Positions 3,896-32,000 of a DNA stretch of 32,000 nucleotides are shown one piece after another; the first letter of the stretch is position 1; each line of letters begins with the position of its first letter. This DNA comes from Nitrosopumilus zosterae (GTDB taxonomy: Archaea > Thermoproteota > Nitrososphaeria > Nitrososphaerales > Nitrosopumilaceae): NCBI RefSeq assembly GCF_025998175.1, contig NZ_AP026695.1:932760-964759 (forward strand). The letters run 5' to 3'. The notes beneath the pieces are model-generated. The model saw nothing but the letters and a program-made list of their open reading frames with translations, had not been told where the DNA came from and did no database searches. The position numbers and the translations under genes are program-made.

Positions 3896-4822
3896 TCAGT
3901 AGTCATGCATTAACTTGTATTCCATGCTTTCTTTCCAATGACCACTGTCAATTTTAAACGAAGTGTTGCATTTTAAACAAAGAGATTCATTAGATATGTC
4001 TTGAAAAATTTCATTACACTTCTTACACAGGTATCTATTATGCAATACTCTGTAATCAACACCCAACGCCTTGATTTGTTTTTTACATTTAGGACATTTA
4101 TCATTATCATATGTTGATTCAGGGGAAAAATTTCCACAATCAAAATGTTCAATTAATTTCACTTGATCAAAATTAGAATTTTTGCAATTTGGGCATTGAT
4201 AAATCTGAGCAAGTTTCAAGCTTCCACAGGCATTACAACAGATCTCACGAATATTTTGCAGTGCTACAACTTTTCCTTCAGAAATAAGTTTTTGGAGATA
4301 TGTTGTAACATCCTTTTCAGATAGATTACTCTGTTCAATTAATCGTGATAGCGTTACACGTTTGTAAGTATTAAAGTAACGATCAATGAGATGACAACCA
4401 TCATTGTCTACAGATGAAGTATGTTCAAGAATGGATTCTTCTTCCTCTAAAATTTTCATTACATTTTTTATCGCTTCAAAATGAATTGGTTTTTGAATGT
4501 AATGATATGCTCCCAATCCAATTACTTCTTTAATTGGATCTTCATCTTTACCGCTTGCGGTTTCAATTATGATTTTTGTATTGGGTTGAATTATTAAAAT
4601 TTGAGACATTACAGATTTTGCATTTGTATCAGGAAGATTATAATCTAAGAACACCAATGGAATAATTTTGTTATTTATTAATTCTTTAAAAAGAGCTAAT
4701 CCAGATTCTCCAGTTGCAGTAGTTTTTATGTCAGCATAACCTAATTTTTTAAGAAATTCAGTTAGTAAAATCCCAATAGCCGTACTATCATCAATGATTA
4801 AGACTACATCTTTTGCACCCAT
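3896..4822 (-). CDS. Response regulator: CheY-like receiver + winged-helix-like segment + Cys-rich zinc-ribbon C-terminus
   Basis: Receiver motifs are present: IIDDS acidic pair, phospho-acceptor context LVFLDYNLPD, and conserved Lys-Pro in YIQKP. The C-terminus has at least four CxxC pairs (CNAC..CPNC, CPKC, CKKC..CLKC). Confidence 0.8.
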   Translation of the reverse strand: MGAKDVVLIIDDSTAIGILLTEFLKKLGYADIKTTATGESGLALFKELINNKIIPLVFLDYNLPDTNAKSVMSQILIIQPNTKIIIETASGKDEDPIKEVIGLGAYHYIQKPIHFEAIKNVMKILEEEESILEHTSSVDNDGCHLIDRYFNTYKRVTLSRLIEQSNLSEKDVTTYLQKLISEGKVVALQNIREICCNACGSLKLAQIYQCPNCKNSNFDQVKLIEHFDCGNFSPESTYDNDKCPKCKKQIKALGVDYRVLHNRYLCKKCNEIFQDISNESLCLKCNTSFKIDSGHWKESMEYKLMHDY

Positions 4823-4882
4823 AACAAACTCTCTAATTTATTCTAGAATAATAATTGTTTATAAAACAATAAACGCTTATTT

Positions 4883-5620
4883 TTGATGCATAGAATGAAA
4901 TTTTTCACATTATTTGGGATGTTAGCCTTTTTGAGTTTTAGTATTTTTGGGAATGACCTTGCAGAAGCACAGGTTGATCCATTGAGCAATATTGTATTTT
5001 TACAAACAGGACAAATTAATACAGATGAAAATCAATTTCAAATTAGTAATGATATAACGGTAAGGGAGTTTTTTGGTGGAAAAATTATTCGTATTTCAGG
5101 TCAGACAATTGAAGGCTTTCCATACATAACATATTCCAAAGTATCTGAGGAAAAAACAGATTCAAGAGGCATAATTTTCATTAACGACCAATTTGTCAAT
5201 TTGAGTTTTCAGGAAAAAATAACAGACAGTAAGACAATTACTGAAAAAAACGATGATCTAGCAATTTTAGTACAATATACTCAAAGAGTATATTCAGAAA
5301 AATATGCAAAGATAGATGTCAAAATTTTTGAAAAATCACAAAACAAATTAAATGATTTTTATCAAAATTATGGTTACAAACAAAACACAAACATTAGTGT
5401 GTCAATAATTAATGAGGATGATCAAACAGCTTTTTCATCCAATGGAATTACAGATAAAAATGGCCTATATCAAACAGAATTTTTCATTCCAGAAAATTTC
5501 AAAAGACAGACATTAACAGTGACAATTATTGCAGAAAATAATGATTCAAAATCATCAAGAGTTTTACAGATTTTTAGTCTAGGCCAACAATCTGATGATG
5601 GTAAATCATCAACACCATAA
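4883..5620 (+). CDS. Secreted hypothetical protein (signal peptide-like N-terminus)
   Basis: MKFFTLFGMLAFLSFSIFGNDLAEA looks like a signal peptide. The true start is probably the ATG at 4886 or 4895 rather than the TTG at 4883. No recognisable family. Confidence 0.6.
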   Translation: MMHRMKFFTLFGMLAFLSFSIFGNDLAEAQVDPLSNIVFLQTGQINTDENQFQISNDITVREFFGGKIIRISGQTIEGFPYITYSKVSEEKTDSRGIIFINDQFVNLSFQEKITDSKTITEKNDDLAILVQYTQRVYSEKYAKIDVKIFEKSQNKLNDFYQNYGYKQNTNISVSIINEDDQTAFSSNGITDKNGLYQTEFFIPENFKRQTLTVTIIAENNDSKSSRVLQIFSLGQQSDDGKSSTP

Positions 5621-27576: not shown

Positions 27577-28123
27577 ACAAATGGAAAAATTTCAGGACGA
27601 AGTGATCATTCCAGAAGGCGTTAAAATCACATTAAACAAACACATGTTGTCGTTTGTAGGACCACTTGGCAAAACTTTCAAAAACTTTAGAACTATACCA
27701 GTAAATCTTGAGATTACTGAAAGTAAAGTTATCTTAAACACCATAGGCAGTAGAAATAAAGATTATGCAATTTTACATACAGCAAGATCTATCATTAGAA
27801 ATATTTGCGAAGGCTTGGTAGAAGGGTATACAATTAAAATGAAAATTGTTTATGCACACTTTCCAATCACATTAAAAGTAGAAGGGAAAAAAATCCTAAT
27901 TGAAAATTTCCAAGGAGAAAGAGCTCCAAGAATTACAAAAATTGTCGGAAACACCAAAGTGATTCCTAAAGGTGAAGATGTAATTCTAACAGGCGAAGTA
28001 TGGACAGATATCACTCAAACTGCAGCAAATATCGAACAAAAAACCAAAGTAAAAAATAAAGACCACAGGGTTTTCTTAGATGGGATATATGCTTTTGAGA
28101 AAAAGAAAGGCTTAGAAAAGTAA
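27566..28123 (+). CDS. rpl6: 50S ribosomal protein L6 (uL6)
   Basis: IPEGVKITL...LSFVGPLG pattern. Last r-protein gene in the cluster here. Confidence 0.95.
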   Translation: MSTKQMEKFQDEVIIPEGVKITLNKHMLSFVGPLGKTFKNFRTIPVNLEITESKVILNTIGSRNKDYAILHTARSIIRNICEGLVEGYTIKMKIVYAHFPITLKVEGKKILIENFQGERAPRITKIVGNTKVIPKGEDVILTGEVWTDITQTAANIEQKTKVKNKDHRVFLDGIYAFEKKKGLEK

Positions 28124-28140
28124 AACCACCAGTTTTTCTA

Positions 28141-28428
28141 ATGACCCTTGATCCTGAATTTTCAAAACAAACAACAGATTTGATTGAACAGACTCTAGAG
28201 TTATACAAATCTGCAGGAGCATCACCTAGAGTTGGAGAAACATGGGATTGTGCAAACATAGGAGATTTTTTGTGTGGTTTTTTTGTTGGAGAGATGGTGG
28301 GTTCAGCACTCAGTGCATTTCAAATTGTGCATCAAAGAGAACCAACAGCTGATGAACACCTAGAAATCATTGAATTAGTTGAAAGTCATGCAAAAGAGAT
28401 CAAAGAATTTTTTGCAAAATTCAATTAA
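28141..28428 (+). CDS. Hypothetical protein (95 aa), not a ribosomal protein
   Basis: ATG ORF 17 nt after L6. Occupies the slot where archaeal clusters normally continue with L32e/L19e/L18. No family recognised. Confidence 0.5.
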   Translation: MTLDPEFSKQTTDLIEQTLELYKSAGASPRVGETWDCANIGDFLCGFFVGEMVGSALSAFQIVHQREPTADEHLEIIELVESHAKEIKEFFAKFN

Positions 28429-28499
28429 GTCTTGTATTTAATTACTCTATATGGCCTAGTCGGAAAGATTAAATCACTTTTGCCAAGGTACAATCTTGT

Positions 28500-28573
28500 G
28501 CCTCCCTAGCTCAGCGTGGTAGAGCATCCGGCTGTTAACCGGATGGTCAACAGTTCAAGTCTGTTGGGAGGCG
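28500..28573 (+). tRNA. tRNA-Asn (anticodon GTT)
   Basis: Hand-folded cloverleaf of 74 nt. Acceptor GCCTCCC/GGGAGGC, D stem GCTC/GAGC, anticodon stem TCCGG/CCGGA with loop CT-GTT-AA, T stem AACAG/CTGTT with loop TTCAAGT, discriminator G. No encoded CCA. Confidence 0.95.
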
Positions 28574-28643
28574 CCTCATATTTTTAAACTTGAGATCTGA
28601 AATATTGTGTTTCATGTCTTTGATAACACCATAGAAAAACAAC

Positions 28644-28671
28644 ATATTTCTAAATTCGAATTTAGAAATAT
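28644..28671. promoter_or_regulatory. 28-bp perfect palindrome ATATTTCTAAATTCGAATTTAGAAATAT (motif copy 1)
   Basis: Exact self-reverse-complement. Lies 71 nt after the tRNA and 89 nt before the zinc-ribbon gene. Confidence 0.8.
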
Positions 28672-28759: not shown

Positions 28760-29008
28760 TTGGTCAGGATTAGAAGGGCCAACAGATATTGTGTAGATTG
28801 TGGGGCAAGGTTGGTGTATTATCCAAGATTATCAAATCCTAAAGCACCAAATGAACATAGAGTCTTAGTATATGCATGCCCTGATTGCACCGACGACTTT
28901 GAAAAGCCCAAAATGTTTTCCATAAGACGAAATCAGGTGGAAGATCCGCTAGAAACAGTAGAAATAGAGATTACACAGCTACAGAAAAAATCAATAGGTA
29001 CAAAATAA
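28760..29008 (+). CDS. Small zinc-ribbon protein (82 aa)
   Basis: CVDC...CPDC four-Cys motif. TTG start with GGAGG 6 nt upstream. Confidence 0.6.
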   Translation: MVRIRRANRYCVDCGARLVYYPRLSNPKAPNEHRVLVYACPDCTDDFEKPKMFSIRRNQVEDPLETVEIEITQLQKKSIGTK

Positions 29009-29018
29009 TTAGAAAAGT

Positions 29019-29246
29019 ATGACATATTCTGAAAAGCCAAGAAGCAATGCATGGTTTTTGTTGCCAGTGTTTTTAGGAATAATTGGAGGGATAATCGCTT
29101 ATTTTGTTTTACGTAATGATGATCCACGTAAAGCCAAGAATTGTTTGTATCTAGGTCTTGTTTTGATGGGGATAGGGATAATATTCAATATGTTGATAGC
29201 AGCATCAATTCCAGGCATAGAGTCAGGATTCAATGTTAATGTATAA
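29019..29246 (+). CDS. Small two-TM membrane protein (75 aa)
   Basis: Two hydrophobic helices (WFLLPVFLGIIGGIIAYFVL, LYLGLVLMGIGIIFNMLIAA) separated by RNDDPRKAKN. Starts 10 nt after the zinc-ribbon gene. Confidence 0.6.
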   Translation: MTYSEKPRSNAWFLLPVFLGIIGGIIAYFVLRNDDPRKAKNCLYLGLVLMGIGIIFNMLIAASIPGIESGFNVNV

Positions 29247-29282
29247 CCACAAAAAACATTGTTTTCCAGACAGTAATTTTGA

Positions 29283-29310
29283 ATGTTTCTAAACTCGAAA
29301 TTAGAAATAT
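29283..29310. promoter_or_regulatory. Palindromic motif copy 2 (ATGTTTCTAAACTCGAAATTAGAAATAT)
   Basis: 24 of 28 positions identical to copy 1. Lies 37 nt after the preceding stop and 65 nt before the ATG at 29375. Confidence 0.75.
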
Positions 29311-29374
29311 CATTAATTTACACTACAAACTATTGAATTTAGAATCATATAGAACTAGTTCAAGTTGTTTTAAC

Positions 29375-29824
29375 ATGAGTGCATCCAGGTTACGCGATAA
29401 TGTCGAAAGATGGTTGATACATGAAGGACTGTCTTTTGAAGAAATAAAGAGTGCAGAAAATTCTTTCCAAATTTTAGCAAAGCACGCAGGTCAAGCAGAC
29501 ATTCCTGTTGAAATATTTGAACCAAAAGGCCAGCCAGGAATTCTGGTAATTGGAGCCAAAGTTGTAATGAAAAACAACCAGATTGCACGTTATTTGGGAT
29601 TTAATGCACAAGAAAAAGAGAACTTTGAAAAAAAAGTGACAGATTTTTGCCATTCAATTCAGGCTATTAATAAAATCATTACAGAAGATGGCAAACAAAA
29701 AATCGGAGTTTATGTTGTTCTAGACGATAAAGAAAACATCAACCAACAGACAGTTTTTGATGCAATAGACAGTGTATCAGAAAAACATGAAAAGACGTCG
29801 AGATTTTTGTTGAAAACATTTTAA
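29375..29824 (+). CDS. Hypothetical cytoplasmic protein (149 aa); weak recollection of a YbjN/DUF2299-like archaeal family
   Basis: The track ORF starts at TTG 29279, but that extension covers the palindromic motif. The ATG at 29375 (MSASRLRDNVERW...) has an ATCATATAG TATA-like box about 27 nt upstream. Confidence 0.55.
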   Translation: MSASRLRDNVERWLIHEGLSFEEIKSAENSFQILAKHAGQADIPVEIFEPKGQPGILVIGAKVVMKNNQIARYLGFNAQEKENFEKKVTDFCHSIQAINKIITEDGKQKIGVYVVLDDKENINQQTVFDAIDSVSEKHEKTSRFLLKTF

Positions 29825-29885: not shown

Positions 29886-30035
29886 ATGAAAACAACAATT
29901 TTTCCAGAAAAAAATACAAAAAGACAGAGTTCAAAAGGAAATTTTTTAGAAAACCAGATTTTGAAATTCAAGGCTTCAAAGAATAAAGTATTCATTTTGA
30001 CAGCAATTGCAACAATAATGGTGGTTGTAAAATGA
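29886..30035 (+). CDS. Micro-ORF A (49 aa), C-terminal hydrophobic helix
   Basis: MKTTIFPEKNTKRQSSKGNFLENQILKFKASKNKVFILTAIATIMVVVK. CTTATATC lies about 25 nt upstream of the ATG. The stop overlaps the next start (ATGA). Confidence 0.4.
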   Translation: MKTTIFPEKNTKRQSSKGNFLENQILKFKASKNKVFILTAIATIMVVVK

Positions 30036-30154
30036 GTATTTTCAACATATTATTCAAACACACCGCAAAGAATTATGAGATCAATGTCAGCATCAACGTC
30101 AATAGACTCAGACTAGAAAATGCAACATCAAGATTGGAGGTTATTCAAAATTGA
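30032..30154 (+). CDS. Micro-ORF B (40 aa)
   Basis: MSIFNILFKHTAKNYEINVSINVNRLRLENATSRLEVIQN. ATGA overlap upstream and TTGA overlap downstream. Confidence 0.35.
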   Translation: MSIFNILFKHTAKNYEINVSINVNRLRLENATSRLEVIQN

Positions 30155-30219
30155 GCATATTAAAAATCATAGGAGAAATTCTAGAAGCATATGAAAAAAC
30201 AGAAGGTCAGCCACCATGA
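30151..30219 (+). CDS. Micro-ORF C (22 aa, TTG start)
   Basis: (M)SILKIIGEILEAYEKTEGQPP. Bridges ORFs B and D through 4-nt overlaps. Confidence 0.25.
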   Translation: MSILKIIGEILEAYEKTEGQPP

Positions 30220-30308
30220 GTAATTTTTTCAAAGTAATCGGGATTGCATTAGCCATACATTTCATTGTGAAAACAGTTCAAAAAGAATTGAAACAATTTG
30301 AAGTGTAG
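30216..30308 (+). CDS. Micro-ORF D (30 aa), hydrophobic N-terminal half
   Basis: MSNFFKVIGIALAIHFIVKTVQKELKQFEV. ATGA overlap with ORF C. Followed by a GGGGG-ATAAA-CCCCC(C) hairpin. Confidence 0.35.
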   Translation: MSNFFKVIGIALAIHFIVKTVQKELKQFEV

Positions 30309-30581
30309 ATGGACGCATCTCTTTTGGGGGATAAACCCCCCTATCACACATAAAATGTGTGTACAAAATGCATACACACCATAAAATCAAATTTTGAACA
30401 AGAATGAGAAAAATAGAATTACAGTTGATGAATCAGCAATTAATAACGCATTTGTATCCACAGATAATCTTTGATGAGTTTAGAGAATTATCATAATTCT
30501 TTTTTTCAAATATTTGATTGAGCAACACAGATTTCTAAAAATAGTCTAAAATAACAGAATTTATCAAAATCAAGCCTAGGC

Positions 30582-30661
30582 GTTAAACCCCCCTTGAAAA
30601 ACGGTGCATTTAGTCACAAGATGATTTTTTCAAAATTACTAGTTTTAAGGGGGGGTTTAAC
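30582..30661. repeat. 19-bp inverted repeat GTTAAACCCCCCTTGAAAA / TTTTAAGGGGGGGTTTAAC separated by 42 bp
   Basis: Arms at 30582-30600 and 30643-30661. 18 of 19 positions are complementary, ignoring one extra G in the G7 tract. Flanked by GCCTAGG and GCCTGG. Confidence 0.85.
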
Positions 30662-30970
30662 ACTCGTGCCTGGATATGAGATGCAATCATCAAACCACCA
30701 AGCTCTCCCATCTAATCATACCCCAAGTTTTATTGTCGTGCGTAAAAGCTAAACCCTCTAAATTTTGATCAAAAAAGCATCCAAATCAGGCAATCATGAC
30801 CAAGAATTCAAGTAATTACACATTCAAAAACCATGAATATTCATTAAATCTCAAGACGATAAATGTGCGATTTTAACAAAAATTTGGCTGAAAAAGAGGG
30901 GGGATGCAGGATATGTTTTTGCCATTATTGATGCGTTTCAACTATATAACAAAATAATCAGAGTTATTTC

Positions 30971-31456
30971 ATGGCAGGAATGGGCGTAATTATTGTGATC
31001 GGCGCCATCATAGCTTCAATGGTTGTTGCAAATTACATGTATATACAATATACAACAAATTACATCGAGGCAGTTGCAGGAAAGCCAATCATGGTAGGTC
31101 CGGTGGAATACGCCATAACATTTGAAGGAACTCATGAAGGAAGTAAAGAAATGATGCCAGAAAATACATTTGTAAAAATTGGAATTACAGCCAAAAACAC
31201 CAGTGATGAAAAAACAATCCTTTCAGGAGGACAATTTTACATTGTTGATGAAAAAGATCAAAAACATGAGGCAGTATTCGGAGAGTTTTCTTCTAAAGAC
31301 CTATTCCTAGAATCATTAGAGCCAAACAAATCGATTGAGAGAACAACGCAGTTTGATATTCCATTTGATGAAGAAAAAAAATACAAAATAATTATTCGGC
31401 CACAAAAAGATCAATCAACAGTTGATACAGCTGTTGTTTGCATAAGAAATTGTTGA
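30971..31456 (+). CDS. Membrane-anchored extracytoplasmic protein, tentatively DUF4352-like beta-sandwich
   Basis: N-terminal TM helix. Pattern FVKIGITAKNTSDEKTILSGGQFYIVDEKDQKHE resembles recalled DUF4352 domains. ACTATATAAC box about 25 nt upstream of the ATG. Confidence 0.55.
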   Translation: MAGMGVIIVIGAIIASMVVANYMYIQYTTNYIEAVAGKPIMVGPVEYAITFEGTHEGSKEMMPENTFVKIGITAKNTSDEKTILSGGQFYIVDEKDQKHEAVFGEFSSKDLFLESLEPNKSIERTTQFDIPFDEEKKYKIIIRPQKDQSTVDTAVVCIRNC

Positions 31457-31548: not shown

Positions 31549-31932
31549 ATGGCAATATCCAAAGCCAAAAGAGCAGAAGCAGCTAAAAAAGCAGCAAGAA
31601 CTCGAAAGAGAAATGCAGCTAAAGCAGCCGCAGAAGCACTAAAAGCAGCCGCAGCTCGTAAGAGAAAGGCAGCAGCAACTCGAAGGAAGAACGCTGGCAA
31701 GGCAGCTCCAAAGAGAAAGGCAGCAGCAAAACGCAGAGCCGCTCCAAAGAGAAAGGCAGCGCCTAAGAGAAGAACTGCAGCTAAAAAAGCAGCTCCAAAG
31801 AGAAAGGCAGCAGCAAAACGCAGAGCCGCTCCAAAGAGACGTACTGCAGCTAAAAAAGCAGCTCCAAAGAGAAAGGCAGCAGCAAAACGCAGAGCCGCTC
31901 CAAAGAGAAAGGCAGCTAAACGTCGACGTTAA
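31549..31932 (+). CDS. Highly basic Ala/Lys/Arg/Pro-repeat protein (histone H1 / AlgP-tail-like)
   Basis: 127 aa made almost entirely of A, K, R and P, with repeats AAPKRKAAAKRRAAPKRRTAAKK. Much more GC-rich than its surroundings. Confidence 0.65.
   Translation: MAISKAKRAEAAKKAARTRKRNAAKAAAEALKAAAARKRKAAATRRKNAGKAAPKRKAAAKRRAAPKRKAAPKRRTAAKKAAPKRKAAAKRRAAPKRRTAAKKAAPKRKAAAKRRAAPKRKAAKRRR
31702..31920 (+). repeat. Imperfect tandem DNA repeats (units of 87 and 69 bp plus a partial third) inside the AKRP-rich CDS
   Basis: GCAGCTCCAAAGAGAAAGGCAGCAGCAAAACGCAGAGCCGCTCCAAAGAGA recurs at 31702, 31789 and 31858. The first unit carries an 18-bp insertion. Confidence 0.85.
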
Positions 31933-31977: not shown

Positions 31978-32000
31978 ATATTTCTAAACTCGAATTTAGA
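31978..32000. promoter_or_regulatory. Palindromic motif copy 3 (ATATTTCTAAACTCGAATTTAGA...), truncated by the window end
   Basis: 22 of the 23 visible positions are identical to copy 1. Lies 46 nt after the AKRP gene stop. Confidence 0.7.

Follow-up and report, generated by a model that had tools for sequence, protein, structure and literature searches.

The window analysed here is a 32-kb stretch (32,000 nucleotides, nt) of the Nitrosopumilus zosterae genome, near the end of which a 662-bp gap separates three small open reading frames (ORFs) from a gene for a DUF4352 protein. Positions 30574-30758 on the plus strand of this gap form a conserved element of 185 nt, and the reading that best accounts for it is that of an uncatalogued, stand-alone and independently transcribed non-coding RNA (ncRNA) gene of about 185-200 nt, to which we assign a probability of roughly 70 to 75%. 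The element is non-coding, its conservation is bounded to one short unit, and it is accompanied by promoter-like and terminator-like signals of its own, of putative function, whatever the orientation of the neighbouring genes. It is specific to the ammonia-oxidising archaeal order Nitrosopumilales. Members of this order are among the most abundant microbes of the ocean and drivers of marine nitrification, and to our knowledge almost nothing is known about their non-coding RNAs. The function that its conservation implies has been overlooked entirely by current annotation.

A first-pass annotation of the window had singled out the gap for five related G/C-tract boxes, which it preferred to read as an iteron cluster, origin, partition site or attachment (att) site, with a structured RNA as the alternative. 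All five boxes are present at the coordinates claimed (Table 1), and the alternative came near to the evidence described below: a sharply bounded non-coding unit with a promoter-like pattern upstream, an oligo-T run downstream, G·U pairs possible on the plus strand only and one covarying helix. The five boxes do not form a single array. Three of them (30582-30593, 30649-30661 and 30748-30758) are the invariant cores of the one 185-nt element: a C-box, GYUAAACCCC, stands close to its 5' end and again, as a direct repeat, close to its 3' end, and a G-box, GGGGGUUKAAC, lies in the centre. The other two are separate C-tract motifs.

Extent, conservation and distribution of the element

The close relatives of the locus all belong to Nitrosopumilus or Nitrosopumilaceae. 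A comparison with the homologous regions of relatives, which the first-pass annotation had proposed, shows that the core is kept in nearly all of 20 syntenic loci from other species and that the box cores are invariant. Within the gap, only about 30537-30786 is conserved in nearly all of these loci, with a DNA identity (71-79%) on a par with that of the coding flank. The edges of conservation are sharp: in 18 syntenic loci it starts abruptly at GCCTAGGCGTTAAACCCCCC (30574) and ends at AAAAGCTAAACCC(C/T) (30758).

More homologues were collected with a search pattern built from invariant bases, TAAACCCC-N55-63-GGGGGKKKAACRC, which gave at least 120 stretches in metagenomes and was followed by a clean-up with a hidden Markov model (HMM). 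Among the matches listed, 125 elements remained after this step, with a length of 185 nt in 111, 184 nt in 12 and 186 nt in one, while one carries a 25-nt deletion. They comprise 113 distinct sequences, almost free of indels even though identity to the window copy falls as low as 56%. Overall, at least 131 homologues come from Nitrosopumilus, Nitrosotenuis, Nitrosotalea and metagenomes. There is one element per locus, the weak minus-strand matches reflecting only the palindromic hairpin, and the genes for ribosomal protein L6 and for a small zinc-ribbon (Zn-ribbon) protein are always near. In marine and soil ammonia-oxidisers alike, the element thus keeps its place next to the end of the ribosomal-protein cluster, with L6, tRNA-Asn and the Zn-ribbon gene.

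Six distant loci (in Nitrosotenuis, CP024808.1; in Nitrosotalea bavarica; and in four other contigs) were obtained via homologues of the Zn-ribbon protein. Each carries an element of 184-185 nt that scores 59.7-146.3 bits with the covariance model R1. The window element scores 176.7 bits and is the sole strong match to the model in the window. In the Cenarchaeum locus (L144; L-numbers are labels of homologous loci) the Zn-ribbon gene is present and the element was undetected even with the filters off. Three loci (L005, L015 and L018) have the DUF4352 gene with no element nearby, because synteny is broken there.

In Nitrosopumilus the element is conserved over its whole 185 nt, beyond the boxes, and in the most distant members the middle (element positions 100-160) is poorly conserved. 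The GC content of the element is 0.42 in the window copy, slightly above that of the genome, and ranges from 0.27 to 0.62 across distant members. A single copy of fixed length, kept from Nitrosotalea and Nitrosotenuis to Nitrosopumilus across a GC range of 27-62%, implies strong purifying selection on an unannotated function.

Putative transcription signals and orientation

The usual layout of an archaeal promoter is a TATA box, a proximal element and an initiator, and the sequence upstream of the element agrees with it. In the 35 nt upstream of the element, 76 non-redundant loci share a pattern: A or T has a frequency of 0.94-0.99 at -25 to -22, in a TTTCTAAAAT-like box, and of 0.99-1.00 at -14 to -12, with C or G dominant at -9 and a pyrimidine-purine step at -1/+1. 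This pattern (-25 to -21 and -14 to -11) is universal in all clades and independent of the upstream gene. The same TTTCTAAAAAT is found in intergenic DNA in Nitrosotalea, and ATATTAGAAAA stands at the matching place in Nitrosotenuis. On the other side of the element, T-runs occur within about 4-25 nt of Box 3, the 3' C-box, in most loci, and are T5-T6 runs in Nitrosotenuis and Nitrosotalea.

The order DUF2299, element, DUF4352, all on the same strand, is kept nearly always. At one locus (L131; Ga0102952_1002354, 4775-4959), the element is inverted in place between the two genes, together with the remnant small ORF, and the promoter-like pattern moves with it. In a soil clade the element is inverted relative to the Zn-ribbon and L6 genes, and in the six distant loci (L143, L145 and L146-L149) it lies on the strand opposite to the Zn-ribbon gene, with the upstream motifs and T5-T6 runs retained in intergenic DNA. 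L143 and L145 have the two flanking genes on the opposite strand; being antisense to both, the element cannot be an untranslated region (UTR) of either gene there.

An upstream ORF on the same strand ends only 14-23 nt before the element in about one-third of loci, the element offers three mutually exclusive strands followed by a U-run, and the C-tract motifs nearby (called M2 below) resemble terminator hairpins. These features would suit an element that acts in cis on the gene before it (DUF2299 or the small ORF), as its 3'-UTR, terminator or attenuator, in which the 5' and central strands would form an anti-terminator and the central and 3' strands, with the U-run, a terminator. We regard this as quite improbable, since Nitrosotenuis, Nitrosotalea and four other distant loci carry the element antisense to the genes around it, its distance varies from 18 to about 1000 nt to the upstream gene and from 100 to 2357 nt to the downstream gene, and no downstream gene is consistently present as a regulatory target. 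In addition, archaeal termination generally does not need hairpins.

Coding potential and known RNA families

The core has stops in all six frames in most copies and 1-nt indels in some, and no frame is open in every copy. This genome has an ORF of 52 amino acids (aa) over 30594-30752, which about half of the homologues interrupt at two positions. The column entropies of the element have no 3-nt periodicity. Frame 1 of the minus strand has a protein-like look but was rejected: it contains about one stop per sequence beyond codon 2, and its apparent conservation follows nucleotide conservation.

The first-pass annotation had called the gap ORF-free and had named a decayed pseudogene as what would count against its reading. 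No ORF in the gap is both intact and conserved, but 30406-30551 is the frameshifted remnant of an ORF of about 51 aa that is intact in relatives, and the description as a pseudogene therefore fits that sub-region and not the rest of the gap. The remnant gives tblastn matches to the family in three successive frames, the last with an in-frame stop. The ORF is intact in about 13 related loci, where it ends 14-23 nt before the element, and has been independently broken in several others. That the whole 662-bp gap is a decayed protein-coding gene, as this remnant and the 52-aa ORF might suggest, is very hard to credit: in most homologues the 185-nt core has stops in every frame along with single-nucleotide indels, it lacks the periodicity of codons, and its conservation exceeds that of the remnant ORF and extends to loci that lack this ORF.

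The only match in the window to Rfam 15 at the gathering threshold is tRNA-Asn. At E<=10, the gap region gives chance-level matches only, well under gathering scores, and ten divergent members give none at E<=1. Standard models detect the RNase P RNA of N. maritimus elsewhere (PMC2996960). Full-text literature searches, with the box sequence included, gave no description of such an RNA.

Several known types were considered and rejected. An H/ACA guide small RNA (sRNA) does not fit a 3' end of AAACCCC; the positions that follow helix S2 (101-103; see below) are variable, with an entropy of 0.6-1.3 bits, and the sole invariant ACA (element 87-89) falls inside helix S1. For a C/D box sRNA, AUGAUGA is found at element 45-51 in one clade only, and the same columns hold AUGUGAA or AUACCAU elsewhere. 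Kink-turns (K-turns), T-arm mimicry, attC-like GTTRRRY/RYYYAAC cores and dif/Xer sites were dismissed as well, as was a leader that sequesters a Shine-Dalgarno sequence; a GUG-started ORF past the G-box is interrupted in half of the family.

Pairing within the proposed RNA and candidate competing helices

The two 19-nt arms that the first-pass annotation had described as inverted partners (30582-30600 and 30643-30661) are 89% complementary. In 86 non-redundant copies, T11, A12, A13, A14 and C15-C18 of Box 1, the 5' C-box, are invariant, as are G78-G82, A86, A87 and C88 of the G-box, which is complementary to both Box 1 and Box 3. Helix S1, between Box 1 and the G-box, is paired in 91% of cells, and is the only helix returned by RNAalifold and by averaged RNAfold pair probabilities (9-21 with 76-88). 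A long RNA hairpin made of this helix and a flanking CCTAGGC/GCCTGG pairing had been proposed; it is the thermodynamically dominant fold, but the outer CCTAGGC stem is confined to the Nitrosopumilus clade. The Box 1:G-box hairpin is invariant, and covariation thus cannot test this helix.

A second helix, S2 (38-46/91-99), can be so tested. It is paired in 86.4% of cells as compared with 82.0% in column shuffles (0 of 500 reach the observed value), and its covariation score of 0.212 exceeds both that of the shuffles (0.140; again 0 of 500 reach it) and that of every slid register (0.106 at most). Compensatory changes replace GC by CG, or the reverse, at 40-97, and CG by AU, or the reverse, at 42-95. 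In the distant members, nine of nine pairs form in L147 and eight of nine in L148, with a new U-A pair at 44-93. A U·G pair occurs at 44-93 in 39 of the 86 copies and at 20-77 in 20 of them; on the opposite strand these would be A·C mismatches, which argues that the plus strand is the RNA strand.

The 3' end of the element repeats its 5' segments. Box 3 (element 175-185) is a direct repeat of Box 1, and the 3'-terminal 22 nt (UUAGGCGU-AAAA-GCUAAACCCC) repeat the 5'-terminal CUAGGCGU-UAAACCCCCC (element 3-20) together with UUUAGGCAU (36-44). As a result, two alternative partners are complementary to the central strand 76-100. The first consists of the 5' segments, by way of S1 together with S2 or, among members of the Nitrosopumilus clade, of the CCUAGGC/GCCUGG stem. 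The second is the contiguous 3' end, by way of 78-88/175-185 plus 91-99/164-172. The latter helix as a whole (H, 78-99/164-185) is 82.4% paired and register-specific (at most 51% when slid), and in one clade (clade F) and in L147 the pairing of 91-99 with 164-172 has undergone compensatory changes. Duplex energies are -21.1 kcal/mol for S1, -13.5 for S3 (G-box/Box 3) and -9.7 for S2, so that S1 and S2 plus S3 are about equal. In L146 (3471-3655, element GC 0.62), Box 1 is directly followed by UGU-GGGGGG, giving a local C6-UGU-G6 hairpin, which would leave the G-box free for Box 3.

Other pairings gave little. Element 100-160 is A/C-rich with no conserved helix, helix scans of 100-185 and of 21-76 returned A-run/U-run pairings only, and mutual information with the average product correction (APC) was dominated by phylogenetic signal between neighbouring columns. 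A pairing of 1-6 with 37-42 was discarded, as it is found in the GCCUAG clade only. RNAduplex runs against the flanks, in search of targets, gave uninformative whole-length duplexes.

A number of points weigh against an RNA gene. We infer the transcription of the element, its 5' and 3' ends and its strand from sequence alone. Where the upstream stop is only 14-23 nt away, the "TATA" overlaps coding sequence and read-through transcription is possible. Structural support is thin for 185 nt, and RNAalifold yields the invariant C6/G6 helix alone. S1 and S3 are without covariation, and their flanking A-U pairs are often mismatched (12-85 is unpaired in 42% of copies and 87-176 in 90%); H and its part S4 (91-99/164-172) score no better than column shuffles. 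The soil clade (L032 type), clade F and L146 have S2 in a weakened or broken form. Moreover, S1 and S2 cross and only 2 nt separate their 3' strands, so that both are unlikely to be fully formed together. Finally, the C-boxes keep an invariant UAAA even where the bases opposite it change, which suggests sequence recognition, possibly at the DNA level.

Readings at the DNA level

Clustering of the boxes exceeds chance by far when counts in the window are set against expected values and shuffles. The three matches to AAACCCCCC in 32 kb all lie inside the gap region, where 0.04 would be expected in all and 0 of 100 shuffles reach three; TAAACCCC has three matches in the window against 0.46 expected. 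Five of the six C6/G6 matches of the window fall inside 30309-30970, and the adjoining 10 kb of the contig contain just one more. Across loci, C6/G6 tracts number 0.70 per kb up to 400 nt from the element and 0.06 per kb farther away, an enrichment of about 12-fold.

A rival reading is that of a protein-binding array on the DNA, with the TAAACCCC/GGGGTTTA boxes and the M2 C-tracts as operators for a locus-specific DNA-binding protein or as a chromosome-organising or partition-type site, and with the 185-bp spacing set by helical phasing. The boxes are found in either orientation, their invariance leaves no covariation, their UAAA is conserved beyond the needs of pairing, the length is strictly fixed despite little RNA structure, the extra C6/G6 boxes are found on either side, and a highly conserved Zn-ribbon protein of the same order only is always nearby. 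Set against these points are the strand-specific G·U pairs and the covarying S2, the preference of the nearby tracts for C on the element's own strand (46 C6 as against 12 G6), the promoter-like pattern that moves with the inverted element, and a conservation in Nitrosopumilus that spans all 185 nt and not the boxes alone. On balance, we consider an array of this kind unlikely.

The origin, iteron, partition or att reading, which the first-pass annotation had favoured, fares much worse. G-strings are a feature of archaeal origin recognition box (ORB) elements; here the inverted boxes flank a 55-nt A/T-rich stretch, and a tRNA-Asn gene lies 2 kb upstream. However, neither a chromosomal oriC nor the origin or att site of an integrated element agrees with the remaining evidence. 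As had already been stated for the window, Orc1/Cdc6 is lacking, and neither the window ORFs and Pfam matches nor 20 kb of surrounding sequence include an Orc1/Cdc6, WhiP, integrase or replication gene (or any rep gene). Unlike a mobile element, the element is present as a single copy, in synteny at 131 loci, and has been conserved by vertical descent across genera, and 2.9 million viral contigs contain 0 matches to the invariant-base pattern. The boxes occupy three fixed positions in one transcription-unit-like element, are of the GYTAAACCCC type and are neither tandem iterons nor iterated binding sites, and the promoter and terminator features are linked to orientation, with the upstream signal retained by an inverted element. 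N. maritimus has a single origin, correctly predicted by Ori-Finder 2 (PMC4010727, PMC4164010). Given how that program works, this origin presumably adjoins cdc6. There is thus scarcely any case left for an origin, and a probable false lead is removed: the G/C boxes are very unlikely to be where replication starts.

A possible mode of action

If the element is a small RNA gene, its central strand 76-100 would have a choice of partners, namely 9-20 plus 38-46 or 3-8 in the 5' part and 164-185 at the 3' end, and the RNA would have two roughly iso-energetic folds. Either fold would leave one UAGGC...UAAACCCC module single-stranded, and the free module could bind a G-rich partner, RNA or protein. 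The invariant UAAA suggests that a partner may read the C-boxes as sequence, and the A/C-rich middle (100-160) probably serves as a single-stranded platform. This scheme of competing helices and a free C-box is offered tentatively.

The neighbouring Zn-ribbon protein, a candidate partner of the RNA only by association, is an 82-aa protein with four Cys that matches no Pfam family above the threshold. The 23 aligned homologues share 76-91% identity with it, its named matches are solely from Nitrosopumilales, and its gene always lies 0.2-1.8 kb from the element. Searches of PDB sequences with the DUF2299 and Zn-ribbon proteins gave only weak matches to RPB9/RpoP-like zinc ribbons, and the AlphaFold model of the Zn-ribbon protein has a predicted local distance difference test (pLDDT) score of 50.8, too poor to use.

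A broader and somewhat more speculative proposal is that of an order-specific bistable RNA, or the RNA of a ribonucleoprotein (RNP), of a new kind, in which two near-identical terminal modules (UAGGCGU...UAAACCCC) would compete for one central strand so that one is always exposed. It might act with the Zn-ribbon protein, and perhaps with M2 sites, in a housekeeping process tied to the ribosomal-protein locus. The coordinates, the covariance model, about 130 sequences and the competing-helix hypothesis are now in hand, and make these ideas directly testable.

The M2 C-tracts and the genomic context

The two boxes outside the element belong to the C-tract motifs. The place of M2 homologues, (CTAAAA/AAATAA)CCCCCC(TTATTT/TATTTGG), relative to the element differs between clades: -250, -120, -103 or +328. 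Some copies have an upstream G5 and a T-run and are thus terminator-like. Other loci have reversed GGGGG-TTTT motifs, similar to the G6 tract of the window, at varying distances downstream of the element. Possible roles of M2 are those of a terminator, of an element associated with promoters or of a site to which the G-box binds. Small conserved hairpins, CACACAUAAAAUGUGUG and GUGUGUA..UACACAC, follow M2 at 30345-30379.

The window sequence is identical to contig BGKI01000001.1 of assembly GCA_003175215.1. The gap lies downstream of a ribosomal-protein operon (Table 1). At 28123-28500, this spc-type operon ends after L6 and a 95-aa ORF without a Pfam match; L32e-L19e-L18-S5, the usual continuation, is absent after L6, and the tRNA-Asn gene and the Zn-ribbon/RNA locus stand there instead. 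The start of the DUF2299 gene differs between the mechanical ORF list (TTG, 29279-29824, 181 aa) and the public gene call (29375-29824, 149 aa). With the latter, the first ~96 nt, which bear a palindromic repeat, are probably intergenic. The three short ORFs between DUF2299 and the element encode 49, 40 and 30 aa, two of them with a hydrophobic helix; they are kept, at 50-92% identity, in merely a subset of Nitrosopumilus loci. Beyond DUF4352, the 127-aa Lys/Ala/Arg-rich protein is made of 18-nt and 69-87-nt tandem DNA repeats (AAPKRKAAAKRR units), with a local GC of up to 0.52, and was likened to a histone-H1-like or nucleoid-type basic tail.

The palindromic repeat, (ATA)TTTCTAAATTCGAATTTAGAAA(TAT), is 22-28 bp long, perfect or near-perfect, and occurs at 28647-28668, 29286-29307 and 31978-32000, where the window end cuts the last copy. 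It is intergenic, 36-70 nt past gene ends, and within the window is confined to the last 3.4 kb. Most related loci have several copies in both orientations. Each half of the palindrome resembles the TTTCTAAAAT box upstream of the RNA element. Possible roles for the repeat include termination or promotion of transcription in both directions, or binding of a regulator.

Table 1. Positions in the window of the boxes, the parts of the proposed RNA gene and the surrounding features
Feature	Positions	Strand	Remarks
Core conserved element, proposed small RNA	30574-30758	+	185 nt; element positions 1-185
TATA-like box AGTCTAAAATAA (TTTCTAAAAT in relatives)	30543-30554	+	About -31 to -20; putative promoter function
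Proximal A/T element AATTTATCAAAAT, consensus ATTTTNCAAAAT	30558-30570	+	-16 to -4
Box 1, 5' C-box GUUAAACCCCCC	30582-30593	+	Element 9-20
S2 5' strand	30611-30619	+	Element 38-46
G-box GGGGGGGUUUAAC, central strand	30649-30661	+	Element 76-88
S2 3' strand	30664-30672	+	Element 91-99; complementary to 164-172 too
3'-terminal repeat ..GUGCGU-AAAA-GCUAAACCCUC	30737-30758	+	Element 164-185; contains Box 3 (30748-30758)
First T-run past the element	30763-30766	+	Candidate archaeal oligo-T terminator; putative function
First-pass box GGGGG-ATAAA-CCCCCC; M2 motif, G5-AUAAA-C6 hairpin	30326-30341	+	14 nt past stop of 30-aa ORF; separate from RNA element
First-pass box GTTAAACCCCCCTTGAAAA	30582-30600		
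First-pass box TTTTAAGGGGGGGTTTAAC	30643-30661		
First-pass box GCTAAACCCTC	30748-30758		
First-pass box G6; G6 tract (C6 on minus strand)	30898-30903	-	68 nt upstream of DUF4352 start codon; reversed M2-like
Remnant of ~51-aa small ORF family (M..LQIDESAINETFASTNNIFDEFRELSS.LF.QVFDWITSISENFLK)	30406-30551	+	Frameshifted
Ribosomal-protein operon L3...S8-L6	Upstream of gap		
95-aa ORF	28141-28428		
tRNA-Asn	28500-28575		
82-aa Zn-ribbon protein	28760-29008	+	
75-aa membrane protein	29019-29246		
DUF2299 protein	Ends 29824		
Three small ORFs	29886-30308	+	
Gap under study	30309-30970		
DUF4352 protein	30971-31456		
Lys/Ala-rich protein	31549-31932	+	

Comparison with known systems

The likeness to an archaeal oriC with ORB or mini-ORB elements is limited to the G-strings and the inverted boxes that flank A/T-rich DNA. 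The element is without an evident ORB dyad consensus, an adjacent orc1/cdc6 gene or iteration, and has transcription-unit features and RNA-level covariation instead.

With attenuators and the expression platforms of riboswitches, the proposed RNA shares a central strand complementary to both upstream and downstream strands, similar summed energies for the two pairings, and a U-run after the 3' alternative. It differs from them in having no conserved downstream gene or recognisable aptamer, in its loops of 55-75 nt, and in being antisense to its neighbours in several genera.

RsaE/RoxS of Firmicutes, a regulatory sRNA with C-rich motifs, resembles the element in having at least two invariant CCCC motifs in an otherwise variable sRNA, possible seeds for G-rich Shine-Dalgarno-like sequences, and in being strongly conserved across an order. 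For the element no targets were found, and the 32-kb window has no GGGGUUUA site elsewhere. It is also archaeal and twice as long, and its C-boxes would be partly sequestered by the internal G-box.

Other parallels are orphan archaeal ncRNAs detected by compositional or comparative screening, such as the Hgc RNAs of AT-rich hyperthermophiles. These are lineage-restricted, single-copy and intergenic RNAs of 100-200 nt with a promoter and an oligo-T run (here present as sequence signals), and they too were spotted as G/C-rich islands in an AT-rich genome. The element has no similarity to them in sequence or model (Rfam 15 was negative), and its GC content is barely raised. What sets it apart from RNAs of the Hgc type is its unusual invariance in length, together with terminal direct repeats that would compete for a central strand.

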